From NCBI GenBank assembly GCA_051294905.1, contig CM119371.1, positions 19,594,001-19,654,000 on the forward strand: a stretch of DNA of 60,000 nt. Reading direction: 5' to 3'. This document shows positions 19,697-58,177 of the stretch, one piece after another (the stretch's first letter is position 1; every line of letters starts with the position of its first letter). The notes beneath the pieces were generated by a model that saw only the letters and a list, made by a program, of their open reading frames with translations, did not search any database and was not told the DNA's origin. The translations under genes were made by a program, and so were the position numbers. The DNA comes from Botryllus schlosseri. Taxonomy: Eukaryota.

Positions 19697-19777
19697 TGTA
19701 TAATAATTAATCTAACTGCTCCAACCAACGTTTATGTCTGCGACAGCGAAGTATAACAATCGACTCGTGGGTGTTGG

Positions 19778-19787: not shown

Positions 19788-20159
19788 ATTTAATTTGATA
19801 GTAGCACGCGGTTGGATGGAAAATAATTCGGCGTGCAGGTCATTCGAAATATAGGTCGCACGCACACTGCGTAATCCTCAGAACCGATCGCGTTTCCGAC
19901 TTTCAGAACCGGACGTATTTAGTGTGTCACAGATCAAAACGTCGCTACAGATATCTGATTTTTCAAAATCGCACAGCGCACTGCGCTTTAGTGAATTTCC
20001 TGTTTAGCGCAACGGCCGATTTTTATTGCGCCACACATGTCAAACGCACCCGCCAACATCTGTTTTTTCGAAATCTGAGCGGTGTATTTCACCATTTTAA
20101 CACATTGTGGTGTCATTCTCATGGTTTACTTTTTCAGTTGATAGTTACATATACTCGTT

Positions 20160-20513
20160 ATGGCAACTAGCGCGATTATTGAGAATTATCTTCTGTACTA
20201 TCATAACTTGACAACCCCCACATTGAGCGAAACGGAAAAATTCATTCACGGAGTACTAGATTTCTATGTACATGGAGAAAACGTGAGCCGTGTTCGAAAG
20301 TGCGATTTTACCACATTAGTTAACTCGATTCGATCATACGGCATCGACTGGAATGGGGTTTTTAGTGTCATAAGCATTGCGGCGATGAAAAGTGACATAC
20401 GTACCCTAGCGGTGTACAGAGATTTAGCAACAGACATCTTGAATACTCACTACAGTACATTGATAAGTGACTGGGTAAGAAGAAAATTCATTCGTGTCGT
20501 TTGTCGCTTGTGA
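20160..20513 (+). CDS. Putative divergent Bcl-2-like protein, 117 aa
   Basis: All-helical. FTTLVNSIRSYGIDWNGVFSV resembles BH1 (DGxNWGRIV) and LISDWVRR resembles BH2. Similarity judged by eye only. Confidence 0.45.
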   Translation: MATSAIIENYLLYYHNLTTPTLSETEKFIHGVLDFYVHGENVSRVRKCDFTTLVNSIRSYGIDWNGVFSVISIAAMKSDIRTLAVYRDLATDILNTHYSTLISDWVRRKFIRVVCRL

Positions 20514-20675
20514 ACGGTATCATTTCTTACAGAACTCCTGTAAAGTTTATTTCAATCCAAGTCTATTCACGCGGGTCATCAGGATTATACAAAGACTGTT
20601 AACTCACTCAATACCACCCACCTAATTCTATAAATATCGACGGATTTGTTGATGACTCTCACTTTACCAAACGAT

Positions 20676-21287
20676 ATGGCATCGAACAGCGTCAGCAGTA
20701 TGCAAGTCGGAGCAGTTTCAAATTTTCACGTCGGTGTCAAATTCGTCTCATCACCCAAAAGAGGTGGCGTTAGTCAATATCTGAAAGGTATATTCATCGA
20801 CGGTAATAAGGAAGAGATATCTTTCACGTGTTTCAATCGTGAATTGTTCGGGGTCATTGAGAAAGCATTCTCCAAACGAAAAAAACTCATGGTCAAATCC
20901 GGTTGGGTCCAAATTGACAAGTTTACTGGAAAACCTGCTGTATTACTGGGACGGGCTTCGTCAGTAACTCTACATGGAAAATCGAGACATACGACTGAAG
21001 AATACCCATTATTGACCTGTGAATCGGTATACGGAAATAAAGATGAATACGTATCGATCGCCGCTACTTGTGTTTCTCGAGAGGAGAAGATGGTCAATTC
21101 TGGTGCCGGAAAGGAGTTGAAATTATACAGTTTTACATTAAAAGACGATACCGGAGAGGTGGTTTTGGACCAATGGAACAAAGCCTCGCTCGTACCCGGG
21201 AAGAAATACCAACTCACTCGTGTTAAAAACTGTGTCGGCAGCTTGAAAATCGATTCGTTAACTAGACTTGTTGAATTGAAAGAATAG
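20676..21287 (+). CDS. Tandem OB-fold ssDNA-binding protein (RPA/SSB-like)
   Basis: FTLKDDTGEVVLDQW...LVPGKKYQLTRVK matches the OB-fold LxDxTGxIxxxxW pattern. A similar N-terminal unit reads IFIDGNKEEISFTCF. Confidence 0.7.
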   Translation: MASNSVSSMQVGAVSNFHVGVKFVSSPKRGGVSQYLKGIFIDGNKEEISFTCFNRELFGVIEKAFSKRKKLMVKSGWVQIDKFTGKPAVLLGRASSVTLHGKSRHTTEEYPLLTCESVYGNKDEYVSIAATCVSREEKMVNSGAGKELKLYSFTLKDDTGEVVLDQWNKASLVPGKKYQLTRVKNCVGSLKIDSLTRLVELKE

Positions 21288-21424
21288 TTTGCATATTTCT
21301 ATACCACAATACAATATTTCATTTCACGTAAAATGTATGACCTATGTGTTTCGATAACTGGGTTAGTGCAGTGTTGTTCTACTGATCGAGGTGTGAAAAT
21401 TGCGCTATCGCGGTGAAGTCGCGA

Positions 21425-22100
21425 CTGTGAACAGCAGACTATTTTGTAGGCACGAAGCAGCGAATAAGCCGAAAGTATTATTCAGCTAGCAATCAATAGC
21501 GAGGAAAGAGAACACGATCGGTCATTTGACACGACTAAACTACGACATCATATATCATAATTTACGATCAAACTATTTCGCACTGAATGGAATAGTGTAA
21601 TAATCGATAGTAGCACACAGCTGCACGGGTAACAATTCAGCGCGCAGGTCATTCGAAATATAGGTCGCACGCACTGCGTAAATCCTCTTACAAGCCGCGT
21701 TTCCGTTTGTGTGGTTATTGTTGGTGACTATTCAACACCACGCGAGAGAGATGCCTGAAAGTACGAAATAGCCGCTCACGACCCCCGCCATAAGAAATAA
21801 GAGCCGCTTGCGACCGATCCCTATACTGAAAAGGGTTACCGTGCGACCACAAGACACAATAGCCGCTCACCACCCCCGCCATAAGACAAAAGAGCCGCTC
21901 ACCACCCCCGGTTTTCCAGCCGCTCACGACCCCCGCCATAAGAAATAAGAGCCGCTCACCACCCCCGCCATAAGACGCAATAGCCGCTCACCACCCCCGC
22001 CATAAGAAATAAGAGCCGCTCACCACCCCCGGTTTTCCAGCCGCTCACCACCCCGCCCATAAGAACCCCTGCCACCGGTTGACCGATCTATATAACTACT
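21425..22100 (-). repeat. Maverick right terminal inverted repeat (676 bp)
   Basis: Reverse complement of 4838-5513. Confidence 0.96.
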
Positions 22101-22548
22101 TTCGATGATATCGTACACGCGTCAGAAACATATAGTGGCGAGATTTCATAGGCTGACGGATCTCAATAACCAATTTGTCAAAACTATAGAGATGAAAGTC
22201 GGTTGGTCCGATTCTTAGAACAGGATTGAAATTTAAATCTGTAAGCAGTGATCTGTACATAGAATTATACTAATTCCACTTTTGGTTCAGTTCCAGGACA
22301 CACAATGCTGACAGCATCATAACCATGTTAGCTTCAAACACGCTTCTACTATGTGTAGATAAAATATAAATCCCCCAATTCTACGCATACAGACAACGAA
22401 TCTACCTAAGACACGCCCGAATCGTTTTTTATAAGCGCAAGACTGAAATAATTATTGAATGGCCAATCTGAAATCCCGCACTCGTTATCCAAATTATGTC
22501 AATCTCGTAGCAGCTTTCCCGCTGTGATATTAAGTATTTACGTTAGAT

Positions 22549-29559: not shown

Positions 29560-29632
29560 GCCTCGATGGCGCAGTAGGCAGCGCGTGAGTCTCATAATCT
29601 CAAGGTCGTGAGTTCGATCCTCACTCGGGGCA
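29560..29632 (+). tRNA. tRNA-Met (CAT), elongator type
   Basis: 73-nt cloverleaf. Acceptor stem GCCTCGA/TCGGGGC, anticodon CAT at 29593-29595, T-loop GTTCGATCC, and a downstream TTTTT Pol III terminator. Confidence 0.95.
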
Positions 29633-31538: not shown

Positions 31539-33943
31539 TAGGGATGGTGTGAACCTCTGAATGGTTCAGGTTCGTGTGAACGCGAACGTGACGTCATATT
31601 GCTAATTCTAACCCTGCATTTCAGTGAAGTGATAGCCTATAATAATGTACACCAGTGGTTCCCAACCTTTTTCGGTGGCAGGGCCAAATTTAGAATTTCA
31701 GAGTACTGTCGGGGCCGCACGAATACCCGGAAGGATGAAAGGAACCCAAAATAGTCTTCAAAATATGAAAATTCGCATTGTTCCGATCATTCGCTTGACG
31801 CCATTGGCCATAGTGTTGACGCGCTCCCGTTGTTCAGAACAATCAACCTTTGCTGGCTATTTCGGAGTAGTTTTATTGCCCTGGCGAGATTTCAATTCGT
31901 ATTTTTGGAATCAGTGCGACACCTCCTTTCGATAAACACCGTCATATCAAATTATTCGGACGCTTGGGTCGCGAGCTATAGGACTACCAATTATGCTGTT
32001 TTTTGCCGGCTAAGCAGTACACATCTCGGCGTATTTAATCGTGAGTCACTTGTTGCACATCTATCCGTAAATTAGTTATCAATACCCATAGGGCCGTAAC
32101 AGCACTTCGTCAGCCTAAAACGTTGCTCTTGGCCCCCTCAGGCTAGATGGCTGTTTACCGCTATTCATCATCTAAATCGGGTGTCCGTTTTAGGCAGCTT
32201 CTCTCGACTAATCGCGCCATGCGCGAAAAATTTCTATAATTCATGGTTGAATCGGTCAATATAATCGGGAATTGAAAATATATTGGTACAATTTTTATCC
32301 TCTCTCTGCTCACGTAATCAGATTGACCGGTTGAGCCGAGTGAGTTGTCTTTGAAAAGGTAGGACCACTCAATAATAATTAAACATCTTCGGGCGTATAC
32401 CCATTGGCAGGAACGAAACAGCACTTCGTCGGGCCCCTCAAAACACTTGGGTCTTGAGCTCCCATAAGGTGATAAACCGACCCCCCCGCCGTCCCGTTGT
32501 TCGATGCTGTCACGAAATCATGATCACCGTTTAGGGAGCCAGCGTGGAGCGCGAAAATCTTCGATAATTCAAAATAAAATAGGCCAAGAAGATCGGGAAT
32601 TGCATATATATTGCCATCAATTACTTGTCCTCTCTGCTCACGTAATTAGATTTACCGGTACAGCTGAGTGAGGTGTCTTGGAAACTGTAGGGCCCGTAAA
32701 TAATAATTAAACATATTCGGACGGGCGGACCCGTTGCTACGACTTCGTTACATGATGTTATTACGTGACCTCCAGTCTGCTATATCAAAAAATATAGAAT
32801 CGCCCAAACGTACTAAACTAAATGATGCACACGATTTCAAATTGGCAGTTCTTCACTGGCATATAATTCTTCCTGCGGGATGGTATAGCCTATTTGTCTC
32901 GTGAGGTTCAGATTGCCAAGACAGGAATATTCGGCGCCAGTCATTTAGGCGCCTATGGTCTTATCTTAGCAGTCTACTCACAACTTTCCTGCAATCCTAA
33001 TTGAAAACTCCAGACTCCAAGCCAAGCAAGAGTATTTTATAAATATTTATATAAAATTATTTCTCAATATTTTTGTGGGGGCCGCATGCGGCCCTCGGGG
33101 CCGCGGTTGGGAATCACTGATGTACACGATACCTAGAGACGACTCGGGCCACATCATGCCACAATGCTGAAGTATTTATTGAAGTTTTAAACGTCGCCAA
33201 ATGTATCAACGGGGGCAATCAAATGATATAATAATCCCACAAAATCAATGCCTTCCGTCGCTTTCCCAACGATTTCGACGAGAACTTGCAAGGGAATATA
33301 ATAAGCTTACGCCTTTAAGGTCTAAGCCAGACCAGATAATGTATTCGGCGTTGATATTGAGCAGAGTGTAAAACGGGTTCTATCTATACTTGCTACCGAT
33401 AGTTATACAGCCGTAGCCAACACCCCAATCATCGTACGGATTCAGTTTTTATGATACAACAAACATATTGAATCGAGATCGACCCCGTACACCTGCTAGA
33501 CTTTTTACATCAGACAACAATATCAATTTCATTAATTGGTTGAAAAAGAATCATTCGCTGACTACCTACACGTAGTGTATTTCGCTCTAAATGTTGTGTT
33601 ATTGCGGGTCAAGCTCACAGCAGAGAGTCACTAAATATTCACAAACGGTAAGCTGGATTTTCGAGCAAACTTGCAACGAAGCAAGTAAAATTTTTGAGAT
33701 TGTTAAGGCGCATATGCTCGTTTAGTGTTTCTTTTTTATTCTGCTAGCGCCATTGATGGAGTGACCCGCAGTTGAAATGCAATAAATTTCAACCAAAGAT
33801 GTTATAATGAAGTTAAAATTGTAATATATGAAAAAGGTTCACAGTGCAGAACCTACCAAGGTTCGTTTGTCAACGCGAACCTTTAAATTTCTGAGGTTCA
33901 CATACAGAACGCGAACGTGAACCTCACGTTCACACCATCCCTA
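31539..33943. mobile_element. Non-autonomous hAT element (middle)
   Basis: TIRs TAGGGATGGTGTGAAC and GTTCACACCATCCCTA; TSD CCTTTTGT/CCTTTTAT. Confidence 0.88.
31653..33119. mobile_element. Non-autonomous hAT element (inner)
   Basis: TIRs CAGTGGTTCCCAACC and GGTTGGGAATCACTG; perfect TSD ATGTACAC. Confidence 0.9.
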
Positions 33944-37096: not shown

Positions 37097-39821
37097 AGCG
37101 GTGTCTGATAAAATCCTAGAAGTGGGCCGTGCTACAACTCGGCATCCACCTAATAAAAAATGAAGAAAATTGGCCAGGTGTAAATTACCATAGTCGTCGA
37201 CAAACACCATGAATATCACAGACAACAACAACGTCGTAAGCATCTACTCTGATAAAGGTAGAAGTAGCGATTTCAGAGTAAGCGAAAAAAGCACGTATTC
37301 TAGGCCTATAGTTTCTCCCAAAAACTGAAAGCTGCTCTGTAAGTAGACAAAAGCTACTCTGAAAAAGTAGAAGTAGCCTACTTCGTTACTCACCCCCTCT
37401 GTGTTTCGGATCATCACTTTTTGGATCAGGATTCGAATCTGTTCGATAAAAAAATCCTAATCGAATTCGGATTCTGTTTCCATCTCGAATGTTAGAATGC
37501 GGAACCGAATTAAGTGTGCTACGAGCAGCACAAGCAGCCTACTCAAAACCCTGTCGTCGATGATTTTATTATGATACTTCATCAATACATTGGGAAGAGG
37601 TCTTAAACTTTTTCGATCGCGGACCCCTTCAAGTTTTATGTGCGGTCGCACGTACCCCCAAAATCTCAGAAGTCGATGACTGGGAGGTAATACCTTCAAG
37701 CCCTACTCTATTTAGGCTATTCCAGTCCGAAAATGATATAACTAATGACTAAACAAGTTTGTCACAGTCCTACACACGACATCATTCTCTGGTTATGCAA
37801 TGTCTCGGTGATGTATTGTCCTTTCATGGACCCCCAAACACTAGATTGTGGACTCCAGCTTATGGGGTGGGCGAGGTGGACGGTCGCCCAGGGCCTCATT
37901 GGTTTTAAGTGCCCTTTTTCAAGGGTTATAGCGAATAGACGTGGAAATCCGTGTAGCAATCAAGAAGACGATTCCGTACAGATTGGTGAATCATCAAATC
38001 TCTGCATTTGTTTGAAAAGTCCCATATCCCGATAATCATCAAGTCTCTGCATGCGGTAGAGGTACTTATCAGTTTTGATGTAGTCTATCCTTGCAACCAT
38101 GCAATAATAGATATGACGTATTGACGTAATCCAGCGCATGGCTCAAACCGTGAGGTGGTGTGCTGCTGGCTTATTACTAATGTCAGCCGATAGCTTTCCA
38201 AATTAGTGTGGTCTATTTAGCCTGCAGCAGTTGTATCGCTATTCTATTATTTCACGCTACATGCCATACATCTTCAACATGAAGGCATGAACTATGTTTA
38301 ACTGTGTCAATTCTATTTATAATTTGACAATGTATGGCTCAGGAGCTAAAGCAATTCAACATTTGGGCCTGCTTCAAAGTCGTGTTATAGTGTCATTTAC
38401 ACATCACGTAATTCCGTTCCATATGGCGCACTATAACATTAAGTTGGTAATAATAGATGCGAAAGGGGAGTCTGGGTGGCGGATCCTCCCAGAAGCTGCG
38501 ATTACGTACTTCTAGCCCCCCAATCGTAGGGCCACCACTGGCGGACCCCTAATGGCTCCGTAGACTCCGGTTTAAGAGCCCCTGTATAGGGGTTACGTGC
38601 AATGAAAGTTAACGAACAAAAATTAAATTTTATCAGTTATAAATTCTTAATTCTTTCTTTTTCCGAACCCGTTACTCGGGCGAAAATAGTAACTCAGTTC
38701 CGTTCGGATCGATTCCTATTATCAATAATTTTATCATTTGATAATCCCACAACATTATGATAAAATGGAAGGATCGAGAAAAATCGAAATGATTTGAAGT
38801 CGTCTCTAAATAAAACAAAACCTAATCGCTGTAAAAAACAAGCATACAAATTGATTAATAATGAAAAGATGATAATGTAATAAGAAGAGATGAAAATGAA
38901 AAGGCATGCGGTTTTCGATTTAGATGTCGGATCGCGGTCAGCTAATCTCGAGCGCAGAGCAGTATCCATTCAATAGCATCGACTTGAACTTTGACTTGCA
39001 TGTGGATAATGCATATGGTCGACGACTATCGGAATACCGACGAAATATTGATCCACAATCGAGGTCCGCCAAACTAAATAGAGCGATGTGTTATTTTGTG
39101 AAAATATCTTGACGCATTGTAATGGTATGATGTGTATGTTGTTATCGTATGTTGCACACGTATGTTGAACTTATTCGCTTCACATTGCGAAATGAAGTGG
39201 TTGAATTTTGCGGCGTTTAGTGCCCGCAATGGGGCTGATACATTAACTTCACAATTTCCGGATTCCTCACATCTTGTATGTTTAGAAAACCAAAGCCCCC
39301 TTCAAGTCCCAATAAGCTATGACACGGAGAACTAGATATTATGTTTTTGTAGTGAGCAAAGTTTTTTTCTCATCGGCAGCACCCCAGTAAGCAGGGCTGT
39401 GGAGTCGGAGTCGGAGTCCGAGTTTCGCTGATTTTCCGCTTAATAGAGTCGGAGTCTCAAATATTTTTTAGCACGGATTGGGGTCGGAGTCGGACTCGTG
39501 AAAACTATAGTGGCTGGGGTCGTAATCGTGGAAAAAATACAGACTGCATGGAGTCGGGGTCGAAGTTTGTAAAAATGACTCCGACTCCGACTCCGAATCC
39601 AACTTCCTTATTATGAAAACAATTGCTTTCAAAGGTACGTTATCTTTAAATTTCTAATATTAACTAAAATAGAATTTTAGGATCACATGAACTATACGCC
39701 GTCATTTCCCGTACACAGGGAACACGAGTAAAACAATGAATCCCCATGTGCATTAATGATCCCCTATGTACGGCCTTTTCTTCAGATGCCTTTTTCTTTT
39801 TGCACTCTCTCGAATGTCATT

Positions 39822-40060
39822 GAAAAAGTGCTGACTCAGCGTATTTCTAGTTACGAGGTTTGAGTTTTTTCCGTCTACTCCCATTATAGAGAAATTCGCA
39901 CATCTCCATAATGTACACTTTTCTTGCCTTATAATCTCAGCAGGTATGGGCCCTTTGTATTCCCTCTATTTTCCAATAAAAAGTGCTGACTCAGCGTATT
40001 TCTAGTTACGAGGGTTGAGTTTTTCCCATCTACGCCCATTACGTAAAATACTTCACTTGA
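39822..40060. repeat. Direct repeat of about 80 bp, period about 156 bp, in the 3' region of the retroelement
   Basis: AAAAAGTGCTGACTCAGCGTATTTCTAGTTACGAGG occurs at about 39822 and 39978. Confidence 0.85.
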
Positions 40061-40229
40061 TACCTATTACAAACACTGGCTCGTCGGGATTATTTTTGTG
40101 TGCCTTATACATATCACAAGGTCACTCAACGATTTACCAATATTACAGAATCACGCTTCACTACTTCACTATAGAAAATAGGTATATCCTGTATTTACAA
40201 CTAATTTTTAAGAACCTAATCTCTAACCT

Positions 40230-40505
40230 TTAAACTCTGTCATTCTCCGTTGTGTTTCGTATTACTCTTGTCGCCATCCATTGCTCTGCTCCGTTTCGTC
40301 TCCTCGTGTTCCTCATGCGACTTAAGGTACTACGTCGACGACACTTTTTATAACTTACCCATGTTACAATCAACGGAGCAATCAACCCTATTACCGCCAC
40401 TAATTCAGTCACGTTTTCTAGGGTAGGTATCAACTTCGCACCTTCAATAATCATCCTATCGATCAAGAACAATCCTCTTACCTTATATTCACCTTCCATC
40501 ATCAC
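40230..40505 (-). CDS. Small single-pass membrane protein in the env position
   Basis: TM segment LVAVIGLIAPLIVTWVSY followed by the polybasic KKCRRRSTLSRMRNTRRR. Confidence 0.55.
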   Translation of the reverse strand: MMMEGEYKVRGLFLIDRMIIEGAKLIPTLENVTELVAVIGLIAPLIVTWVSYKKCRRRSTLSRMRNTRRRNGAEQWMATRVIRNTTENDRV

Positions 40506-40643
40506 CAGTCTTGCAGCCGTTGAGTATAGTTGTAGTCAACGAATTCTGTGGACATCTTCTCCACGGTGGTTCTTGATAGTCGGGGACATTCAGGTACGGA
40601 TGTTCCCACCCCTGGGTTTTTCTGCCCAGACAGTGGCAATGCT

Positions 40644-42875
40644 TCAACCGTTGTTGACCGTAATGGTCATCAGCTCGACACTACTCGTGAATACGTCGTC
40701 CTTGTCGTCTCCTGATGAATACAAAATGGACGTTTCGGCACCTACCTTATTGCCGTCATCCATAGTTCGGTAGTGCGTTCCGATGCCGCTCCCGCCGTCA
40801 TCCGTGAAGTTCTGCAGAGCGTCCGTAGTGGTAACCGGATGCACTGACGTTTCTCTAGGCGTTTCCACCATGATTTTCGTCATTCCGTCGGTTTGGTTCC
40901 GCGCGCGACGAGTTTGCAACTGTTGCTTCCCATGAGTCGCATCAGTTGGTTTGACATTTTCATTTTGTCCCCTTATTTTAACCATCGATCTCAATCGTTT
41001 AAAGGTTTTCGTCAGTTTTAGTTTTACAAAGCATGTCCACAGGTTTAACAACAGTAACCGGTGTGGCCTCTTCCAGTTTTCTTTCTTCAAATCTAAGAGG
41101 GAGAGTACTTCTCTTCCTTGGGCTTCTTTCAATGCCTTCGCCTGGCCCTCCCCCTTCAAATTACAAGGTCCAGATACAAATGGTTTGGTCGAAGGGTCCT
41201 TAAGTTCGATGCCGCATCTGTATGCCATGGCGTGTGAGGAGCCGAGGTGACCACGCAGGTCCTCGAGTTCGGACGCAAACGGCGCGTAGAAGGCTTTCCA
41301 GACTTCATCAGAAATAATGGTATTTTCTGGAGTCGTCAGGTCAGGAGGTTTGTACGGGAGTTTGGCCAGCGCTACATATTGTACACAAATATCTTCAAGT
41401 TCCGTCATGACGCTTGAGTTAGTGTCTTTATGCAAAACATACGCAGTAACTGGTCCAGCCATGGGCTGGTGTGAGCCTCGTGATGATCGAGGTTTTGGTG
41501 TTGGTGGAGAGAGGGCGAGGTCCTTCGATGTAGGCCTCTGATCTCGGCGCGTGCCCGCGTCTACCGTCACGCCGATGGACTCCTTTTCCGCCGGGGACCC
41601 TATTTCTGGGGTGACGTGCATCTTAAAATCCCCAGACTCCTTGTCGGACATGACTGGGCGTGTATCCGGTTGACCGGATATAGCTGCTTTGTTTGAACCT
41701 TCTGGGAAAGTAATCATAACTGTGGCTGTCGTCATGCATCTATGGGCCGAATCATTACAGTTATTCGGACAAGTGCATCCACGAGAGCATTTAGGACCAG
41801 TTTTCTCGTGCAGGTCCTTATTTACGCCAGCGGACATTCCACGCTCGACGTCAGCTGTAGCTGTCGCCATGCATCTATGGGCCGAAGTTCTGCAGTTCTT
41901 CGGACAAGTGCATCCGCGAGAGCTTTTGGGACCAGTTTTCTCGTGCAGGTCTGTATTTACGCCAGCGTGCATTCCACGCTCGACGTCAGCTGTAGTGGTC
42001 GCCATGCATCTATGGGCCGGATTTTTACATTTATCCGGACAAGTGCATCCGCGAGAGTTTTTGGGACCAGTTTTCTCGTGCAGGTCCTTATCTACGCCAG
42101 CGGGCATTCCGCGCTCGACGTCTTCATTAACGGTGTCAGCAGGCATTCCTGCCTCGACACCAACAGTTTTCCATAGGTTCTGGGTGACGTTCGTTGTGAT
42201 TTTCAACTCGTCGTTCGCACCAGTGGTGATTTCCATTTTGGTACTCGCGCCAGCGGTAATTTTCCGCTTCACGCTATCTTGGTTTGCAGCATCCATCAAC
42301 CCATCGTCGATTGCAGTGTAGCTAATACCGCTTTCGACTTCGGTTCCCTTCCATTGATTGCACGGGTTCTCATCATGTAGTGTTACTAAAGACAACTCTC
42401 CATTTGCGTTAGACGGGGTTTTCAATTCCGTAACTATGCTTGGTAATTGTTGGACTCGATCAATCCATTTTAAGCCAATTACATTGAGAGGGACTCCTTT
42501 CCCGGTCGCAAATGGAACCGGTAGTTCGTCAAAATCAATTACAACCAATGAGTCAACGTGGGAGGAGCCCCCTATACCACGTAACTTCATATCTAAAGGT
42601 TGCCGTTCCTCCCAGCTCTTTGGATACATGGCTTTTACGATATTTTTCATAATTAGATTAGGTAGGCTTCCCGTGTCGGCCAAAAATGTCGTACCGGTTG
42701 TTGAATCAGTCAAGTACAAAAGCCGACCGCCGAATAACTCCGTGAAGTCTGGCTGTAGAGGGTTATCCGGTGTATTAAGGGGTAGAGAAGCGTTATGAAC
42801 AATCTTTGCGGGTTGGGGTAATAAATTTTCTGGGAGCTGATTTACCGGATCAATCAGCACCCCCAGTCGTTTTTT
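40644..42875 (-). pseudogene. pol: pro-pol remnant: aspartic protease, 3x45-aa repeat, RT start, then a deletion junction at about 41125
   Basis: Protease FLADTGS...NVIG; RT-start-like CGIELKDPSTKPFVSGPCNL; no YxDD, RNase H or DDE motifs. Confidence 0.8.
41718..42122 (-). repeat. 135-bp coding tandem repeat, three copies
   Basis: CATGCATCTATGGGCCG recurs at 41733, 41868 and 42003. Confidence 0.95.
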
Positions 42876-44575
42876 GAGAGTCTCAACCCTTGTTCAAGTT
42901 CCTCATCCGTCCAGTGTGAGGCGTCATAGTGACGTGGCGGGCGTCGAAATAGCGGTTCCGTCCAGGCCACTTGGCTATTGCTTTGATTTGGCTGTGCAGA
43001 CGGTCCCTGAGGACCCCATTGATCCTTATCATGCCAGTGAGTTCCATCTCTATTTTTTGGCCTAGTGTCATAATAGGCTTCGCACAAGGCAGTTCTCTGT
43101 GTCAGCGAGGGAGAGCCTTGGGCGGCAAGGTATCGGTCGAGGTCCGGGACCGTCAGTATGTTATTCCTCGCAAGGAAAGGCCCCCAATCACGTTCAGCGG
43201 ACTCCTTAACGCGAGTAGGTATTGGTTGTACTCGCTTGCGAACTACCCATCCCAAGGTATCATTCTTGGCAAGCACCTCCTCATTTAGCCGAAGTATGAA
43301 TTTTGCCACGCAATTTCGGGATTGGTGTCCCGGGGCCTTACAGCAAAAACATACGGATAAGGACTGCCCCTGAGGAGGTTCCAGATATAAGCCTAGAGGG
43401 GCGAAGATGTTTGGGTTCCCAAGAAAATTATATCTCTCCCCTTGGCTCTCCGCGATGCGGAGGGCTTCCTGACTGCTTGATGGTGTGATTTCCTGGCCAC
43501 CCCCGCCGATCCCAGAGTCCTGCGTCTTCGTCAGTTGAGGTGTCCGGTTCCAAGTACTTGGTCCCTGACTAGGTTGAGAAGACCTGGAGTTTCGCGTTGG
43601 TGTAACGTTGAGTCCATTCGATGCGTTGCGCACGTTTTGTGGTCGGGCAGGTTTAGCCCTGGGAGTCGGACCACGTCTGCCGAACCCATTGCCAATCATA
43701 ACGTTGGTAAAAAAACGGTTGGTCTTGGTGCCGCGAGGAGGGTTACGTCGTGGCTGTGAAGCTTGCCCGACACCGACGAGCTGCCGTGGCCACATTTCCC
43801 CAGACCGTCCGGGTGGTGTCCCTCCGATCATGTGTAGAGGTGGTTTAGGTGAGGATGGTTGCACCATCAGAAGTGGTGTTATAGTCGGTGGGGGAGGGGT
43901 GTTCAGTCGTCCATCTTCACTCCCGTGAGTAGGGTAACTGTGCATCATGGGTCCTGCAGGTTGAACATAATATATATATACCGGCGGTAGGGAAGGCTTC
44001 GTTTCACGTATTTGACCAGTTCCCTGATTCTTGGAGCGCGTCTCCTGTTCGTCCAGAAATTCAGAGTTCCACACAAGCTGTAGTTCCTCCGCAACTTCCC
44101 GCCAAGTCTTTTTTTCTTCCCAGCCTCGTAGCATTAGTCTGAGTGCCTCTGGTAATCGTTGTCGTAGATTTCGGAAAAGTCGCAGTCCATCCTGGTTATC
44201 CTTAATGTCACTTTCCATGTTTATTTCTAATTGTTTCAAGGCGCTATTTAGCAGCGGTAGGGGTTCGTCCTCCCAGCGGTAATTTCTACGGAAATCCCCA
44301 ATGATCTTTTCATCATTTACCAGGCCCTGGGGGTTAGATAAAGAAAGGGATCTCATCACCGAAGCCCACTCTGTTTCCCCCGAAGTTGTGTTGAAGAAAT
44401 TCCCCAGTTGGGTTGCCTGCTTGTGGCGGCCAGCATCCCTTAACTTCTTCTGCATGGCGTTTGCCAAAATAACATCAGCATCCGTGTTTCCTGGGCCGTG
44501 ACGTATTCGTCTCATCGAATTTGCCATCCATTTCAGAAGTGGCATGTCTCCAGGATCCATCATAAGCTGAAGCAT
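42854..44575 (-). CDS. gag: Gag capsid/nucleocapsid part with CCHC zinc knuckle
   Basis: Helical CA-like region, Pro-rich linker, and the knuckle C(F)CCKAPGHQSRNC (CX2CX4HX4C). Confidence 0.85.
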   Translation of the reverse strand: MLQLMMDPGDMPLLKWMANSMRRIRHGPGNTDADVILANAMQKKLRDAGRHKQATQLGNFFNTTSGETEWASVMRSLSLSNPQGLVNDEKIIGDFRRNYRWEDEPLPLLNSALKQLEINMESDIKDNQDGLRLFRNLRQRLPEALRLMLRGWEEKKTWREVAEELQLVWNSEFLDEQETRSKNQGTGQIRETKPSLPPVYIYYVQPAGPMMHSYPTHGSEDGRLNTPPPPTITPLLMVQPSSPKPPLHMIGGTPPGRSGEMWPRQLVGVGQASQPRRNPPRGTKTNRFFTNVMIGNGFGRRGPTPRAKPARPQNVRNASNGLNVTPTRNSRSSQPSQGPSTWNRTPQLTKTQDSGIGGGGQEITPSSSQEALRIAESQGERYNFLGNPNIFAPLGLYLEPPQGQSLSVCFCCKAPGHQSRNCVAKFILRLNEEVLAKNDTLGWVVRKRVQPIPTRVKESAERDWGPFLARNNILTVPDLDRYLAAQGSPSLTQRTALCEAYYDTRPKNRDGTHWHDKDQWGPQGPSAQPNQSNSQVAWTEPLFRRPPRHYDASHWTDEELEQGLRLSKNDWGC

Positions 44576-45719
44576 CTCTTTTTTCCGATTGGGGTTTAAC
44601 GGGTATGGTGATCATCGGGGCTGTGACACTAGCTTGTTGTCGTGGCCGTTGTTGCCCAGACCTTACACCATTATCTTTTGGAGTAGAAGTAAAACGAGGC
44701 ATATTAGGGTGCCCGGGGCTGTTAGATTGGCCCCCATCAGAATATTCGTCAGTAAAATCATCATGGCTGTAGCTGTCTTGGAGTGACGTTTGGTAATTTC
44801 TTATCTCTTTAGCCAGACGTCGTATTCGAGAATCGAAGTCGTCACTCTCTGAATTGTCCTCGTCGTTTCGCTGGTCCTCCTGTTCCAGAAATGTCACACG
44901 TCTAGATTCGCCATCCGCACTTCTTGCTCTCCTCCGAGAGTCTACCACTGCCGTACGACGGTTCTGGCGGTTTTGCCGTGCCCGATAGCCTCTATACTTG
45001 TCCAGAGGGCCCTTTTCAGGATCTGATTCGGCACGGGATTCGTCTCCCTCAACCCTGACAGGGTTCGGTATTTCGCCGGGCCCCCCTTTTTTCTGCTTGG
45101 CACACGCACCGCCGTCCACATGGAAACACGGTGTCGTTCCCTTACGGGAGCCTAACAACGCAGTCGGTCCTGAATTAGGTATCGTAGGGTATACAGCCTT
45201 TACCGTATGGCAATCTAAGCCTTTCGTGACTGTCATGGTAGGTATTTGCGTTACGTCTTGTAATGAATGTTCAGCAAGAGGATCGTACGCTGGAGGATCG
45301 TAAGCTGGTGAGTTTGGTAGTACAGTCAAAACAGGAGTTGGATTTCTTTCCCTTACAGCTTGCGCATGTGACTTTCCGAGGTCGAACTCTGAAGCAAGAA
45401 TTTCATTTAGTACCTCGGTAGAGACTTTCCCGCTAACCTTCGAAGTGGCATCGCATACTGCTTTGAGGTCGGCTTGAGCTCTCCTGACTTCTTTCTTGGC
45501 CTTTCCCAGCCCCTTCATTGTCTCGGGCAGAGCTGATTTGACTTCTTTTAGTACCTTTGTTTGATCAGCCACGTCTTTTGCCAGCTGTCTTTCTTGTTGT
45601 CTGACGTCTTCATGGCGTTTTTGCGTTACTTTCAGCAGCTTGATACCCTGCTCGAGCTCGTCAGCCGCCTCTGACAGCTTCTTTTTCTTCTTCCTAAAAA
45701 TTTTTAGCATTCTTCGCAT
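44475..45719 (-). CDS. gag: Gag N-terminal part (basic patch, coiled coil, PPAY motif)
   Basis: 414-aa ORF starting MRRMLKIFRKKKKK, with a heptad region and PAYDPPAYDP. It overlaps the next ORF and is probably one gag broken by a frameshift near 44560. Confidence 0.65.
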   Translation of the reverse strand: MRRMLKIFRKKKKKLSEAADELEQGIKLLKVTQKRHEDVRQQERQLAKDVADQTKVLKEVKSALPETMKGLGKAKKEVRRAQADLKAVCDATSKVSGKVSTEVLNEILASEFDLGKSHAQAVRERNPTPVLTVLPNSPAYDPPAYDPLAEHSLQDVTQIPTMTVTKGLDCHTVKAVYPTIPNSGPTALLGSRKGTTPCFHVDGGACAKQKKGGPGEIPNPVRVEGDESRAESDPEKGPLDKYRGYRARQNRQNRRTAVVDSRRRARSADGESRRVTFLEQEDQRNDEDNSESDDFDSRIRRLAKEIRNYQTSLQDSYSHDDFTDEYSDGGQSNSPGHPNMPRFTSTPKDNGVRSGQQRPRQQASVTAPMITIPVKPQSEKRDASAYDGSWRHATSEMDGKFDETNTSRPRKHGC

Positions 45720-45763
45720 AATTTATGTAAATTTTGATTGTCTGTATATTAGTTCCGTGCCTT

Positions 45764-46099
45764 TTACTGGCCAGGGTAAGTACCGTTCTGAGGTAAATTA
45801 CTCACGGACGTGGTTGTGTTGTCCCCGATCACTCGTCCTTGCGTCGTGGGTACGGAATGTCTTATGAAGATAACCGGGTCAGTTCTGTTGGTGATTACCA
45901 CAGCAAATCCGTTATGTGCGACATGTAGTAGTTCGGTCGTTGTAGTGACGTCGTCAGAGAGACCTTCAGGAGTCTTCGTAGGATAGAATACCGGCGCAAG
46001 GTGTGCGTAGATCGATGCCAATATTATAAGCAGAGATATAACAGAAGTGACTACCGTCACACGGAGCACAATTCTCACGAGGGTCGTCCTTGAGAACAT
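45764..46099 (-). CDS. Pre-gag ORF: putative type II membrane glycoprotein, 111 aa
   Basis: N-terminal TM segment VTVVTSVISLLIILASIYAHL; Thr-rich ectodomain with sequons NRT, NTT and NGT. Confidence 0.55.
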   Translation of the reverse strand: MFSRTTLVRIVLRVTVVTSVISLLIILASIYAHLAPVFYPTKTPEGLSDDVTTTTELLHVAHNGFAVVITNRTDPVIFIRHSVPTTQGRVIGDNTTTSVSNLPQNGTYPGQ

Positions 46100-46128
46100 C
46101 AAAAGGTCAATGTTTTTACACCGGAAGT

Positions 46129-46146
46129 ATCCCAGTGGTGCCTCCA
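46129..46146 (-). promoter_or_regulatory. Primer-binding site complementary to tRNA-Thr
   Basis: TGGAGGCACCACTGGGAT matches 17/18 to the complement of the metazoan tRNA-Thr(AGT) 3' end as recalled (TGGAGGCACCGCTGGGAT). Confidence 0.8.
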
Positions 46147-46148
46147 TT

Positions 46149-46450
46149 TGTGTCTTTATAGTGCAGCTCCATAACGATTGTTATGCGAGTCGTCTACACT
46201 TGGTTCGGATCACTTCACGGCAAAGAATTGACCTTTTATTGCACTGTACTGTCCAGACGACGTCCGTGGACGTTGATTGAAGTAGCAGTAGTTGCAGTAG
46301 TGGTATCTTTCAGCATCAGACAATGACCCTTAGGTCCAGAGTTCTAAACTAGCCTTATATAACGTGTGATTAGGCCTTAATACAACCAAATACTCCAATA
46401 TACGTCCCACTTAGACTTGAATATCATATCAATCCTTGATAAATCCTACA
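46149..46450 (-). repeat. Putative 5' LTR (start uncertain, 46450-46472)
   Basis: On the minus strand: TG start, TATATAA at about 46355-46361, AATAAA at 46235-46240, and a CA end at 46149 two nt before the PBS. Confidence 0.65.
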
Positions 46451-54382: not shown

Positions 54383-55064
54383 TCAACAGTTTAGTTTTTC
54401 CTGCCACGCGATAGTTGTTATACACGATTTTTGGTTATTTCGTCGAGCAACACCTCTAAAATATTTTTGAGACCCGTTATTGCAGTACTTTCTGTAAATA
54501 ACATATATTAATAAGAATACGACAGACATGCATACTGCGACAATTATGGAATGAATGTTTCCCGGATTTATCAATCCTCCGCCATTGTATAATTTAGTAA
54601 AAATGTTTCTTACCGTGTAAGTCCGTTCAAGTATTTGTAAGTTATACAACTCTTCGTAAAAATCAAAATCACTTTGGATCAAAATCAAAATCACTTTGGA
54701 TCAGTCAGTCATATGCGGTGTTCTGCGATGTGCTGTGCTCATTGAAGATCGTCCTCTTTAGTACTGTGTTTCCTGATCCGATCGGCAGAGTCTGTCTGTT
54801 GGTAGTTGACGACAAGATCGCCGTATCGTCCCTCGGATCAATTGTTGTTGGTCCAGATGTGCCATCTCCTGATGAAATTGAAGTGGTTATTTTGGAACTT
54901 ACCTTTCGATCATGCTGTTGGAGTTGGTGATCCGGCCCGGTGATGGAGAGGTGCGTATTCGTCACATAGTACGGATCTGTTTCGGTTGTTCTTCCAGCCC
55001 GTTTTGTTTCCATCACATCTACGCGGCGTTGCATTGATATTGTGCGTCGATGATTTACGCGCAA
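54383..55064 (-). pseudogene. 3' accessory-ORF region of a second, decayed related retroelement (Thr/Asp-rich ORF plus small membrane ORF)
   Basis: The 54383..54694 product aligns by eye with the 40230..40505 product, and the ORF order is the same. Confidence 0.5.
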
Positions 55065-56410
55065 TGGTTGCGTATAAGGCTTGGTTTTTAGGTTAATTTC
55101 GAACGTCTCTAGTAGTCGTTTCTAAGGCATTTTTTACATTTCATTTTTCGCACCAATAGTCCGTGCTCCCTTAGAAACCATACGTAATCACCTACGTTGG
55201 GCAACGCTCCCGCTTGAATTGATCGCAATACGTTGTATGTCCTTCCATGAACGCCTACGTAAGCTAAATGGTAGGGCATGTGCAGGTTTTCGCTTTTCGG
55301 GTATCTGCTGTTTCTTGTGGGGAAACGCCATTTTTTTTCAACAGCGCGTCGCTAGACGGTTCTCTCCTATCTGTTTCCGTGCTATGGTTAGGCAGGGCGG
55401 ATAATTTACTTGCTCCATATAAGATCTAGTGAATTTAAAAACCTTCATTTCAATGTTCATGTACAGCACACATCTTATTAAAGTGAAACATTCACACTCC
55501 TATCGCACACCCACAATTCAGTGTTCCACACTGGCGCCGTCTCTATTTACGGCGCTTACTACACTTGAACCGAATTTTATGTAGGCCTACCATCAATCAC
55601 TGTTATTAGTAACGATATTGCCAAAATTTGACATTATTTGCAAATTGCAATTCAGTTGCATAGAGGAAAAAATCACATTATATGCGTCTTTGCGACGCAG
55701 TCACAAATTGATGCAAATTTTGGAATTATACCATGATACTGTGACAGAGTAAAATACATCGCCTGGTTTTGTAAAATATCGATGTGAATATATCTAAACG
55801 CTGCTAATATTCCTCACTTTTAACAGTTTCCGGTCGCATTTTCAAGTACCAGTACCAATAGACCAAATCCCAATAGGGTGGTTACTTTACTATTCTTCGA
55901 AATTACAATGAAACGTCGGCATTGGCCGTGTGAGTCAATACACAGAATGACTCGAGTCGAGTCGAGTCATTTCCGTATTTTGAGAAAACGACTCGAGTCA
56001 CGTCGAGTCCTCAGAAAATCGTGACTCGAGTCATTGCAACCCTGCATTTAACCGTCACTGTGTCATATAATTTTCGAAGTACATTAGTACTATTGTTAGA
56101 GTTCTCTTAAGAAAGTAGCCGGAGTCGGTACGTTTAAGACTCAGTAGTCGGAGTCGTAGTTGGAGTCGACTCCCCACTGCCCTGCCAGTAAGAAATGCGA
56201 TATTGTAGCTTTGATGAAAACGAGTAGGAATACCAGAAGCCAGAATAAGAACCCGAAGCAGCATGGGGCCTATCAGACGGTAAAACATAACGAATTCCTG
56301 TGACTACGGAACTTGTTTCAGAAAAAAAAACCTTTGTAGGATTCCAGTCTGCTAGAGCAAAAAGATTCTGATCATGTAGTTCTCCATCGACAGATTTGGC
56401 TCCCTCGGTA

Positions 56411-56894: not shown

Positions 56895-58177
56895 CAGTGG
56901 TTCCCAACCTTTTTGTCTTCATTCCCACTTCCCCGCCAAAAAACGTTGATCTTGGTCCCCCACAGTGTGATAAACCTAACTTCTGGGGGTAAAGCCCCCC
57001 AGGACCCCTCGGTAAATATGATCGGGAATTGCATGTACTTTGTTATCAATTTTTTGTTCCCTCTCTGCTCACGAAATAAGATTTACCGGTAGAGCTGAGT
57101 GAGGTGTGTTGGAAAAGATAGGACCCCTAAATAAGAATTAAACATTTTGAGGCGGACCCCTTCGTACATTGACTTCATTACATTATGCTATTTCGTGACC
57201 TCCTATATCTGCTATGTCAAAAGATAAGGCACACACGATTTCAAATTGGTATTGCTTTACTGGCAAATAATTTTCCCTGCGGGATGGCATTTGCCCTGTG
57301 GGGTTCATATCGCCAGGACAGGAACATTCGGCGCAAGCTATTTAGCCGCCTATGGACAATTAAACTTATATGTATATTGTATATATATCGAAGTTTTCGG
57401 TCATCAAAAAGCCATTCCATCTCGGCCAAGGTCTTCTCGCTGCTGATCGTTCTGGCACATTTCTCGGAGTTGCATGTTACATGGCCTTGGTGCGTCGTGG
57501 CGCAGTAATGGCCGACGCCGAAGTCTCCATTTCTATAAATTCTACGTATTTTCGTTTGGGAAGGATACCGAATAATCAGATATTCGACAATGTTAAACCG
57601 CGCACCCAGCGCGAAAATTGTTTGATAAAGTGGCTTAAATTTCTGAAAAAAAAACTTTGATTTATGTTAATTCACGAAATAATTGTGGGCCTCTTCGTGC
57701 TCGCCCCCTTCCCAATTGGGGGTTTGGGGTCCGTCAGTTACGGTCCTGCTCCCCACTTCCCAGCACTTTTGTCATCACAGAGCAGCTATCCGCTGGTTTG
57801 ACTACACAAGACATACAACCACACCAAGTACGCAAGACGATCGCCTTTACCTGCAACATAAAACGTATTGTGAACCGATTCCAGTAACGCTCAAAATGTC
57901 GCGAAAGCGTTATTACACGTCAAACTAGTCGTGCTGGATGCGTTTGTGACGCTATGATTGTTGATCTAGAGTTAAAAATGAGGTTTTGTGAGCAACACGC
58001 AATATAATTTTCGATACATACATTCCAGAGCAGTTGACTGGTAACGGTAATTGCGCATGTGTCTCCGTGAATATGTATACTGTCCTGTATATAATTTTGA
58101 ACAAATGCGTCTATTCGCCACCAGAAATCATTGAATTTTCCACCAGTGGGGAATTCCCCACCGTTTGGGAACCACTG
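56895..58177. mobile_element. Non-autonomous hAT element
   Basis: TIRs CAGTGGTTCCCAA and TTGGGAACCACTG; perfect TSD TTTTAGAA. It shares an internal block with 32590-32960. Confidence 0.9.

Follow-up and report, generated by a model that had tools for sequence, protein, structure and literature searches.

A spliced leader-headed, internally deleted retrovirus-like element in Botryllus schlosseri, probably from an ascidian lineage without retroviral integrase

Results

The element and its 5' end

We consider, with somewhat better than even confidence, that an element in the window analysed here (60,000 nucleotides of Botryllus schlosseri contig CM119371.1) is non-autonomous, carries internal deletions and remnants of env, and was copied into DNA from a spliced leader (SL) trans-spliced RNA of an ascidian tRNA-primed, retrovirus-like lineage that lacks a retroviral integrase. 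The element starts with an SL, has no terminal repeat and carries a primer-binding site (PBS) and gag followed by pro in the -1 frame; its deletion of reverse transcriptase (RT) is present in other runs, and the order in related elements is PR-RT-RNase H-Tpt1 with or without an AP endonuclease (Table 1).

Table 1. Positions of the element's features and of the paralogous cassette within the window
Feature	Position	Strand	Remarks
Exact DNA copy of 24-nt host SL	46376..46399	-	Apparent 5' end of element
5' leader (R-U5-like)	46149..46375	-	TATA-like 46361-46355; AATAAA 46240-46235; terminal CA
PBS, 18 nt	46129..46146	-	After CA-AA; CA-AA-TGG
ORF0, candidate type II membrane glycoprotein	45764..46147	-	127 aa from PBS-overlapping ATG; 111 aa from ATG 46099
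gag N-terminal frame, 414 aa	44475..45719	-	Basic patch; predicted coiled coil; PPAY 45296-45285; YPTI 45191-45180
gag C-terminal frame, 585 aa	42854..44611	-	Two-lobed capsid-like domain about 44590-44042; CCHC knuckle 43351-43310
Slippery heptamer A AAA AAC	42869..42875	-	-1 shift into pro, then hairpin
pro frame, 749 aa	40644..42893	-	Aspartic protease DTGS 42677-42666; variable spacer; RT remnants; ORF3 in frame
Three 135-bp tandem copies (family D3)	41720..42124	.	45-aa Cys/His-rich unit; PR-RT spacer
RT remnants	41082..41462	-	Pre-RT/RT start 41462-41124 joined to 14-residue RT motif 41123-41082
ORF3, Thr/Asp-rich, 113 aa	40644..40985	-	Starts at ATG 40985; open upstream as far as deletion junction
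Middle frame, 54 codons, open	40502..40666	-	Stop overlaps ORF4 ATG (TGATG 40504-40500)
ORF4 frame, 101 codons	40230..40535	-	90 aa from ATG 40502; single TM, basic tail
3' non-coding region	39700..40229	-	Repeat pair 39799-39886 / 39954-40041, spacing 155 bp
Diverged paralogous cassette	54383..55351	-	14 kb from ORF4; three frames
Cys-containing frame of cassette	55351-55112	-	No Pfam/NCBIfam match
T-rich frame of cassette	55121-54705	-	
TM+basic frame of cassette	54700-54383	-	No start codon; first Met inside TM, residue 58 of 105

The SL was identical at 24 of 24 positions to the 'Chordata 1' consensus without its first G (PMC3795323, Table 1), and this was the only copy in the window (chance expectation 1.5e-9). 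In RNA run X24, cDNA adapter was noted immediately beyond 46399 in 195 reads, and 181 reads switched to unrelated sequence at 46367-46370. Element-like depth stopped at 46399 in run X12 and dropped from 788 to 106 in X2, contig depth in these runs not being equivalent to copy number, and in one X2 contig the SL and the PBS region are linked by another leader. The leader had been described as an LTR, a label that we abandoned given that its first 24 nt are host SL and that no second copy was present in the window (word size 7). Comparison of the leader with 39000-40300 at word size 4 gave three short matches only (E 0.49), and window scans revealed no LTR partner, terminal inverted repeat (TIR) or target site duplication (TSD) for this copy, only unrelated small hAT-like elements. 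Paired LTRs with a 4-6-bp target duplication, the trait of Metaviridae, were thus absent from this copy, the one examined. With an exact host SL at its 5' end and no LTR pair, the element has the appearance of a trans-spliced RNA that was copied into DNA. The preliminary description had noticed neither the SL nor the absence of terminal repeats, nor that Pol in this lineage lacks integrase and ends in Tpt1.

Strand skew persisted to about 39700, and the 3' end of the element adjoins a small repeat element. The junction at 40074 was spanned by X2 record 14. No true 3' end, poly(A) or target duplication was found in the 3' region of this copy. Among the marks of a LINE retrocopy, the SL (mRNA 5') head was present, whereas no poly(A) tail or TSD was found to support LINE-type insertion. 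An Rfam scan gave a single chance match, and depth over gag-pro in X24, about 6% of which was sampled, was below 2. That the arrangement is real and not an assembly artefact was evident from single contigs of other runs that span its junctions, namely X12 record 7 (both pol junctions, which places the RT deletion in other runs as well), X12 record 11 (leader-PBS-ORF0-gag start) and X1 record 1 (ORF3 end-ORF4).

The CA-AA-PBS arrangement was present as described, with CA-AA-TGG and an 18-nt primer site that we take to be tRNA-Thr-like. Contigs of X1 and X12 part at 46140 into another tRNA-3'-like sequence, the downstream flank being retained in X12.

Gag, protease and RT remnants

Comparisons were made with relatives that included L001 and L002, the 2 of 14 loci from a metagenome scan that belong to the lineage. 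The very long gag anticipated from the sequence was borne out by single ORFs of 928, 976, 869 and 848 aa in relatives; in the present copy it is broken by a frameshift within the overlap of its two frames. The N-terminal polybasic patch (K/R at 9 of the first 15 residues), PPAY at residue 142 and YPTI at residue 177 were all confirmed, while the coiled coil was called by eye and from weak Pfam matches only. Among the five gags examined, YPx[LI] occurred in 5 and PPxY in 4, within an otherwise poorly conserved region, so that gag, with its basic N-terminus, appears suited to membrane budding, as had been proposed. Structural constraint may account for retention of the YP motif, which forms part of a conserved block (GLD...YP).

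In a predicted model of the capsid-like domain, the top five VIA matches were all C-terminal domains of retroelement capsids, with modest Z values (6.5-6.9) and rmsd of 2.4-3.7 over 76-89 residues; Foldseek returned no match to the gag model at E 0.001. The CCHC knuckle lies in a conserved 150-aa domain. Searches of PDB and BFVD with the knuckle-flanking domain (pLDDT 76) gave no structural match (Z 2.4 at best), a result that is not evidence of a new fold. In common with Ortervirales, gag combines a predicted retroviral capsid fold with a CCHC knuckle, and a protease and PBS occur in the window; RT-RNase H occurs in relatives and as remnants only here.

The -1 frameshift into pro also stood, the DTGS protease lying in the -1 frame relative to A AAA AAC. 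The same heptamer was noted at the gag end of L001 while the strict pattern was not found in L002; the hairpin that follows it here is present, with a region z of -0.51 that is within chance. The designation gag-pol was not confirmed, pol being reduced to its protease, the stretch ahead of RT and an RT motif of 14 residues. Identity of the two RT remnants to L002/P0006 Pol, in which they correspond to separate regions, was 55% and 93%; RNase H, whatever lay beyond it and all other parts of RT are deleted, with junctions near 41124 and 41082. No GT-AG signature was seen at the equivalent positions of L001 and L002, a weak test in other species. A 27-codon frame after the second junction was considered as the end of Tpt1, in which case an integrase could not have been accommodated, and this was rejected, as the frame gave no score against a five-sequence Tpt1 profile. 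The copy is defective, in agreement with the preliminary description.

Membrane-protein frames

The pre-gag ORF reported as a type II glycoprotein was recovered with one N-proximal hydrophobic segment (KD19 2.55), an S+T content of 20% and three N-glycosylation sequons, and was gapless in X1 record 6, X12 record 11 and X2 record 19. A Pfam search with ORF0 gave no match above cut-off, and its nearest Atlas clusters were pneumoviral G glycoproteins (0.79, a lead only). We infer that ORF0 is a type II attachment-like glycoprotein.

ORF3, previously listed as a separate ORF, is in frame with the 749-aa pro frame and forms its C-terminal part. It carries two sequons and an RRAR motif, presumably furin-like; its 3' end varies by indels among copies, and a 46-nt stretch matched 54860-54905 at 72%. 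A search of proteins of 80-256 aa yielded 14 candidates, none at E 0.01. ORF3 is probably the remnant of a larger glycoprotein.

The small TM and polybasic ORF was found as described, with KD19 of 2.19 and K/R at 7 of the 15 residues past the TM. ORF4 had no match in Pfam, PDB gave none either, and the nearest Atlas match of ORF4 was at 0.83 (a lead only). It is homologous to 54383-54700 (score 61, 0 of 2000 shuffles), the TM frames of the two cassettes being 21% identical; homology 5' of the ORF4 ATG was marginal (p 0.04), and ORF3 and the T-rich frame of the paralogue were not significantly similar (522 of 2000 shuffles). The paralogous TM frame aligned with positions 551-607 of 609, among the last 60, of Pfam Baculo_F (E 0.005, 15.9 bits, under the cut-off of 24.1), a match that may reflect TM composition alone. 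Since the paralogue lacks a start before its TM and resembles, if weakly, an F-type env, both TM+basic frames are probably env stumps, and ORF4 probably represents what is left of the C-terminus of a longer envelope protein. The earlier proposal of an element with no classical env that spreads through small membrane proteins is weakened by the same two features of the paralogue, by the absence of the MGxxxS/T motif from ORF4 and by the ORF3 frame being open to the junction; the alternative which that proposal had itself named, fragments of an ordinary env, has become the more probable one. The copy is also a warning that deletion can leave behind small TM+basic frames which mimic FAST fusogens.

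Further observations go against the reading of these frames as env stumps. The order common to both cassettes, compact and T-rich then TM, is explained as well by a shared small gene as by two deletions, and the ATG of ORF4 overlaps the upstream stop in the manner of coupled small ORFs.

This TGATG overlap is also part of the case for an env-less element that spreads from cell to cell by small membrane proteins, with ORF4 a FAST/sORF2-like fusogen expressed by stop-start coupling and ORF0 an accessory glycoprotein, an explanation that we regard as unlikely. By hydropathy, ORF4 (90 aa) falls within the criteria of Voichek et al. (60-210 aa, a single TM, an ectodomain of 10-50 aa and at least 3 K/R after the TM), and comparable ATG-started TM frames of at least 85 aa are rare (1 in 29.6 kb of flanking DNA). 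Similarity among copies ends at 40239, beside the ORF4 stop, but an env C-terminus would likewise end similarity at its stop. ORF4 starts MMEG and lacks the N-myristoylation motif MGxxxS/T, although two Drosophila sORF2 are likewise unmyristoylated. Against a fusogen are also the paralogue, which has no start before its TM and resembles an env C-terminus, and the position of the frame, downstream of pol as opposed to upstream of gag for sORF2. Moreover, the X24 RNA copy has a stop at ORF4 codon 75, with 3 silent and 4 non-silent codon differences in an incomplete table (40 of 655 difference rows).

Rather less probable still is a reduced, non-classical envelope in the form of one mucin-like type I glycoprotein of compact size (about 230-270 aa), of which ORF3, the 54-codon frame and ORF4 would be pieces, the protein being broken both here and in the paralogue. 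Order and total length are alike in the two cassettes despite the low identity of their TM frames, and the indels at the ORF3 end, the RRAR motif and the sequons fit such a protein. However, a convincing signal peptide is absent from both T-rich frames (KD19 1.09 and -0.09), X1 record 1 has the identical arrangement without a gap, and the search of 80-256-aa proteins found no homologue.

Pol of the relatives and placement of the lineage

Pol sequences of five relatives consist of RT-RNase H-Tpt1, one with an added AP endonuclease. Pfam matches were to RVT_1, RT_RNaseH and PTS_2-RNA with none to rve, and among these Pol sequences that extend beyond RNase H integrase was present in 0/5 and Tpt1 in 5/5. 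The relatives' Tpt1 domain matched Tpt1 structures (E 2e-11) and retains the RH, R, GHS, HxT and R motifs of PF01885. These motifs have catalytic roles in the enzyme. The integrase probe was positive for gammaretrovirus-pattern loci (10/10), L028-L030 (3/3) and L003-L014 (8/12) and detected none in P0010, P0012, P0016, P0032, P0034, L001 or L002. This absence applies to Pol; L002, in which all three frames are closed within about 65 nt of the Pol stop, extends just 77 nt past Pol and leaves room for a separate downstream integrase ORF.

The RT of the lineage forms a deep branch (support 100/97) outside Caulimoviridae, the pararetrovirus-pattern clade being formed by 25 entries (94/83) in one tree and 15 (91) in the other, with labels assigned from motif and genome size. 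Relative to the 11 integrase-type references, among which there was no named animal Gypsy clade, it was on a separate long branch. A join to gammaretroviruses (85/76) was unstarred and flagged as a long-branch meeting. It is very unlikely that the element is an ordinary Ty3/Gypsy (Metaviridae) element with env that lost integrase and LTRs in this copy alone. The single Ty3-type RNase H, which in relatives precedes Tpt1, the PBS after CA-AA, the -1 frameshift and the capsid fold would suit such an element, and tunicate Tor elements are env-bearing and Gypsy-like with uncertain position (PMC4402516). Against it stand the five Pol sequences, all with Tpt1 and none with integrase, and the deep, separate RT branch.

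Slighter again is the chance of an animal pararetrovirus-like agent, tRNA-primed, integrase-less and episomal, with accidental genomic copies. PR-RT-RNase H without integrase or an LTR pair is the caulimovirus plan, and of the PDB entries it was the 'Enzymatic polyprotein' 8r0s, which we take to be cauliflower mosaic virus RT, that the Pol profile matched most strongly, at 147 bits ahead of Ty3 at 131 bits. Nevertheless, the RT clade was neither inside nor beside the pararetrovirus-pattern sequences in either tree, no relative was found among IMG/VR contigs (or GTDB genomes), and copies seem to start at the SL and not at random points.

Three other homes were dropped. Kuafuorterviruses are defined by IADD/VADD/LADD RT, LTRs and integrase, while the relatives have YIDD/YMDD and the supplement text of that group contains no PTS_2; Retroviridae, loki and Odin elements are defined by integrase and by a dual RNase H, in which a tether is joined by a new RNase H (PMC9040795), while the relatives have one RNase H; HEART was considered and dropped. 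The lineage fits no family tested, consistent with the earlier suggestion of a possibly undescribed invertebrate lineage. No description of a Tpt1-bearing, integrase-less or Merlin-coupled retroelement was found in the literature searched, most subscription journals and Repbase lying outside the search.

Discussion

Known pathways suggest how intact members of the lineage might behave. Gag would bind membrane through its basic N-terminus and recruit ESCRT through PPxY, YPxL or PTAP, and the particles probably bud enveloped. ORF3 and ORF4 would be surviving pieces of larger surface glycoproteins, one mucin-like and the other an F-type envelope, that survived an internal deletion or splicing event similar in kind to the one behind the loss of RT. 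A sub-genomic RNA could have acquired the host leader and been reverse transcribed in trans, with either the RT of the family itself or a LINE supplying the activity. One lead is that a Merlin-type transposase may integrate intact members; the frame at 55351-55112 appears to us to resemble a Merlin transposase N-terminus. Around the present copy no Merlin DDE domain, GG-starting TIR pair or 8-9-bp TSD was found, and a leader-headed RNA copy would not need them. The full scheme, in which an enveloped, tRNA-primed ascidian lineage with Tpt1-ending Pol, Merlin-type integration, ESCRT budding and SL-capped RNAs gives rise to satellite-like copies of gag, protease and membrane ORFs, is tentative and falls somewhat short of an even chance.

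Among known systems, sORF2 of MDG1-group Metaviridae and reovirus FAST proteins (10.1101/2025.03.14.642691) share with the element small TM ORFs, in the former case within an LTR-type retroelement, and with ORF4 its size, TM and polybasic tail; sORF2, however, lies upstream of gag in insect integrase-bearing LTR elements and is usually myristoylated, whereas ORF4 follows pol, is not myristoylated and probably represents a remnant of env. Tor of Oikopleura dioica is likewise a tunicate element with divergent Gypsy-like gag-pol and membrane glycoprotein genes after pol but has LTRs, integrase and a large furin-cleaved Env, and neither Tpt1, an SL head nor a pre-gag membrane ORF was seen in the available part of its description (PMC4402516). 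A precedent for leader addition is Cer1 of Caenorhabditis elegans, a Gypsy element in which SL1 is added by trans-splicing to a sub-genomic RNA, itself spliced in cis, but not to the full-length RNA (PMC3315495); in Cer1 the SL is on RNA only, whereas in the present element it has become part of the genomic DNA and heads a copy that has lost RT. Likeness to Merlin/IS1595 elements (PMC8101967) is confined to the possible transposase N-terminus ahead of the paralogous cassette, the present copy differing in its lack of DDE domain and Merlin-type ends. The relatives keep the motifs of cellular Tpt1/KptA RNA 2'-phosphotransferases (PF01885) but, in contrast with the cellular enzymes, have this domain fused to RT-RNase H at the usual place of integrase; it is deleted in this copy.

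Caulimoviridae resemble the lineage in tRNA-primed PR-RT-RNase H without integrase, in a zinc-knuckle capsid protein and in the top PDB match for RT-RNase H, but the lineage's RT is set apart in trees. Caulimoviridae have plant hosts and a movement protein and are not known to have budding motifs or glycoproteins. To our knowledge they are the only integrase-less family among tRNA-primed, protease-bearing reverse-transcribing elements (family lists, PMC11673190 and PMC9040795). If the present interpretation is correct, a lineage of animals that combines budding motifs and glycoproteins with Tpt1 at the place of integrase would be a new family-level branch and, its ascidian hosts belonging to the sister group of vertebrates, would bear on how retroviruses gained envelopes and integration. 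The novelty concerns the lineage and not this defective copy, which adds evidence of passage through RNA in the host SL fixed at its head and the alternative primer sites among copies.

Organization of the element

The element was oriented on the minus strand, reading downward from 46399, and an A-rich strand skew extended from about 46000 to about 39700. Its features are listed together with those of other elements in the window.

Features of the retrovirus-like element, of its paralogous cassette and of other elements in the window
Feature	Window position	Strand	Remark
Leader exon, 24 nt	46399-46376	-	apparent 5' end of element
Leader, 227 nt	after leader exon	-	3' end CA, then AA
Primer site, 18 nt	46146-46129	-	
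ORF0 (pre-gag ORF)	46147 or 46099 to 45764	-	
gag, two overlapping frames	45719-44475 and 44611-42854	-	
gag zinc-knuckle domain, 150 aa	43037-43483	-	conserved
Slippery A AAA AAC	42875-42869	-	
749-codon frame	42893-40644	-	protease (DTGS), three 135-bp repeats, RT remnants
Cys/His-rich unit, three 135-bp copies	41720-42124		PR-RT spacer
ORF4 (small TM + basic ORF)	40502-40230	-	
3' region	3' of ORF4	-	repeat at 155-bp spacing
Small inverted-repeat element	39400-39601		GGAGTC units; adjoins element 3' end; run X2 shows high depth
Diverged cassette, ORF3/ORF4 paralogue	54383-55351	-	possible Merlin transposase stump, T-rich frame, TM + basic frame
Polinton/Maverick, apparently complete	4833-22105		inverted repeats 688 bp, 100%; matching 6-bp flank each side; capsid and protease frames identified only by eye
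Polinton/Maverick rve + chromo integrase	10868-9792		
Polinton/Maverick ATPase	12215-11571		
Polinton/Maverick PolB	17068-13433		
Bel/Pao LTR retrotransposon pol	1-4192		cut by window edge; Peptidase_A17 E 4e-41
Small hAT-like elements, two	31653-33119 and 56895-58177		CAGTG ends, 8-bp target duplications
tRNA-Met gene	29560-29632		

In place of the LTR first described at the 5' end, a leader present only once in the window was found, the first 24 nt of which matched the 'Chordata 1' spliced leader (SL) consensus minus its first G at 24 of 24 positions (consensus as printed in Table 1 of PMC3795323; chance expectation 1.5e-9). In RNA run X24, cDNA adapter lay immediately behind 46399 in 195 reads and 181 reads departed into mixed sequence at 46367-46370; these SL reads are host trans-spliced mRNAs rather than transcripts of the element. 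Contigs from two other runs, X12 and X2, provided moderate evidence of at least two divergent SL-headed copies, X1 and X12 being runs of uncertain kind and depth not a measure of copy number: one X12 contig (record 11) spanned 45518-46399 and ended exactly there, summed X2 contig depth across 46399 fell from 788 to 106, and one X2 contig linked 46375-46399 via different letters to the primer-site region.

At 46140, X1 and X12 contigs changed into another tRNA-3'-like sequence, which in the X12 contig we take to be tRNA-Ile-like, with the same flanks retained in X12. Exchange of this kind is a trace expected from tRNA-primed reverse transcription. The primer site shares bases with the first ORF0 ATG (46129-46147). 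The X12 copy with the different primer site was apparently one base longer there, and the ATG at 46099 is therefore the likelier start of ORF0. Around this copy, neither poly(A), TSD nor a TIR pair was found, nor were Merlin-type features (i.e., TIR, TSD or DDE domain, as given in PMC8101967).

Gag and its putative budding signals

The very long gag of the preliminary description was confirmed by four relatives in which gag is a single ORF of 848-976 aa (i.e., 928, 976, 869 and 848 aa), this copy being frameshifted within the 44475-44611 overlap. A structure model of the C-terminal gag frame had a mean pLDDT of 49, with values of about 75-80 across the helical part, and its top five structural matches were all capsid C-terminal domains (Ty1-derived Drt2, Drosophila Arc2, MOAP1, foamy virus and MLV) at modest Z scores of 6.5-6.9; Foldseek gave no significant match to this model. 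The 150-aa domain that contains the zinc knuckle was confidently modelled, and a structural search with it gave no match.

Late motifs were noted among five gags as PPxY in four, YPx[LI] in all five and PTAP in two, the chance of each motif in shuffled sequence being 0.02-0.13 per sequence. Because the gags are related, these occurrences represent conservation and not five independent events; the YP motif sits inside a conserved gag block. The gag N-terminus was basic in four of the five, the relative P0004 being apparently short at this end. In retroviruses, a basic Gag N-terminus and late motifs lead to ESCRT-dependent budding. The same combination of motifs and basic N-termini points to ESCRT-dependent budding here, and on it the budding-type gag originally proposed stands.

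Pol of the lineage

A HMMER search with the protease-to-pre-RT region as query gave 27 matches. Named relatives were Styela clava proteins only, and together with the chordate-type leader they suggest a styelid-like ascidian as the host. Longer relatives (the proteins P0012, P0016, P0032 and P0034 and the locus L002) showed the order PR-RT-RNase H-PF01885 (Tpt1/KptA). The Tpt1 match was supported by solved structures (E 2e-11), with retention of RH, R, GHS, HxT and R, presumably the catalytic motifs of this domain, and in P0034 it was followed by a complete exonuclease III/AP-endonuclease domain (residues 882-1113, Pfam E 2e-18). None of these five Pol sequences reacted with an integrase probe that was positive for 10 of 10 gammaretrovirus-pattern loci, 3 of 3 loci L028-L030 and 8 of 12 loci L003-L014, and in L002 every frame was closed by about 65 nt past the Pol stop. 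Five Pol sequences thus show no Pol-encoded integrase; a separately initiated one may lie further downstream.

All that survives of RT in this copy is its beginning and a single 14-residue motif, the remainder being lost at two junctions near 41124 and 41082. Both junctions are spanned by an X12 contig (record 7), and the RT-deleted form is therefore present in data from another study. With gag frameshifted and RT deleted, the copy is defective, as first supposed, and cannot replicate alone. The separate 113-aa Thr/Asp-rich ORF of the preliminary description (ORF3) proved to lie in frame at the end of that 749-codon reading frame. The PR-RT spacer is a hot spot of repeat expansion, since P0023 and P0032 have unrelated repeats there.

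Among PDB matches to RT-RNase H, 8r0s (147 bits), which we take to be cauliflower mosaic virus, ranked first, ahead of Ty3 (131), foamy virus (77) and MLV (66). An RT tree was built from 44 rows (4 lineage, 13 caulimo-pattern, 12 of 63 badna-pattern, 4 of 10 gamma-pattern and 11 integrase-type), L001, L002 and P0010 being left out as redundant or split and L004, L012, L013, L014 and L028 excluded because they lacked motifs. Lineage RTs grouped as a single clade (100/97) whose long branch joined gammaretroviruses weakly (85/76, flagged). The references were labelled by motif and genome size, and animal Gypsy, Bel/Pao, DIRS, loki and Odin RTs were not represented among them by name. With gammaretroviruses removed (27 rows, quick method), the lineage fell outside both the pararetrovirus clade and three typical Gypsy-like rows. 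The RT tree thus did not place it in Caulimoviridae.

Membrane ORFs

ORF0 combines a single N-proximal TM with three sequons in a T-rich C-terminus, and was gap-free in three contigs from other runs; its nearest Atlas clusters were pneumoviral G proteins (0.79, a lead only). This candidate is probably a real type II glycoprotein, in agreement with the preliminary description.

The ORF4 paralogue (54383-54700) gave a score of 61, reached in 0 of 2000 shuffles (42 of 5000 for the pre-TM portion alone). Upstream of it is a T-rich frame, itself preceded by an 80-codon frame that, in our judgement, resembles the N-terminus of Merlin transposase and that had no library match.

The likelier reading of ORF3 and ORF4 is as stumps left from larger surface proteins. 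The first Met of the ORF4 paralogue falls within the TM, and the paralogue matched the last 60 positions of Baculo_F weakly (E 0.005, under cut-off). ORF4 similarity to the paralogue reached marginally 5' of its own ATG (p 0.04), and the ORF3 frame is open to the junction with no evident signal peptide. In the copy seen in X24 RNA, ORF4 codon 75 is a stop. Counting against stumps are the overlapping TGATG where ORF4 begins, a compact order shared by the two cassettes and the loss of similarity to other copies beside the ORF4 stop. The small fusogen originally proposed is an unlikely, minority reading of ORF4: in size, TM and polybasic stretch ORF4 agreed with sORF2/FAST proteins as characterized in 10.1101/2025.03.14.642691, but the myristoylation motif given there was not found, and the paralogue Met inside the TM and the Baculo_F match also speak against a stand-alone protein. 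That ORF3 and ORF4 are pieces of one compact broken glycoprotein is more doubtful still.

Proposed life cycle

Intact members would transcribe gag-pol RNA and make Gag, plus Gag-Pol through -1 shifting as the observed layout suggests, and would bud together with their own glycoproteins. Reverse transcription would be tRNA-primed, consistent with the primer site and its exchange, Tpt1 may, speculatively, act on the phosphate ends of primer or cDNA by processing or capping them, and integration would proceed without the Pol-encoded integrase that is missing from the five Pol sequences. This copy would be a derivative with a leader cap and an RT deletion that was copied back in trans, by a LINE or by the family's own RT.

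Comparison with known retroelements

Literature on Tpt1-bearing, integrase-less or Merlin-coupled retroelements was not found in a search whose scope excluded subscription journals and Repbase. In the way it works the lineage resembles an enveloped LTR-type retroelement, but it differs from Metaviridae in integrase and LTR pair, from Caulimoviridae in the RT tree, from Retroviridae, loki and Odin in dual RNase H and integrase (as described in PMC9040795) and from Kuafuorterviruses in the YxDD variant (PMC11673190). The suggestion of a possibly undescribed lineage was thus upheld. For an SL on a retroelement's sub-genomic RNA, Cer1 is a precedent: according to PMC3315495, its spliced sub-genomic RNA acquires SL1 by trans-splicing whereas full-length RNA does not. 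The closest tunicate parallel is provided by Tor elements, which, as portrayed in PMC4402516, differ in carrying LTRs, integrase and a large Env.
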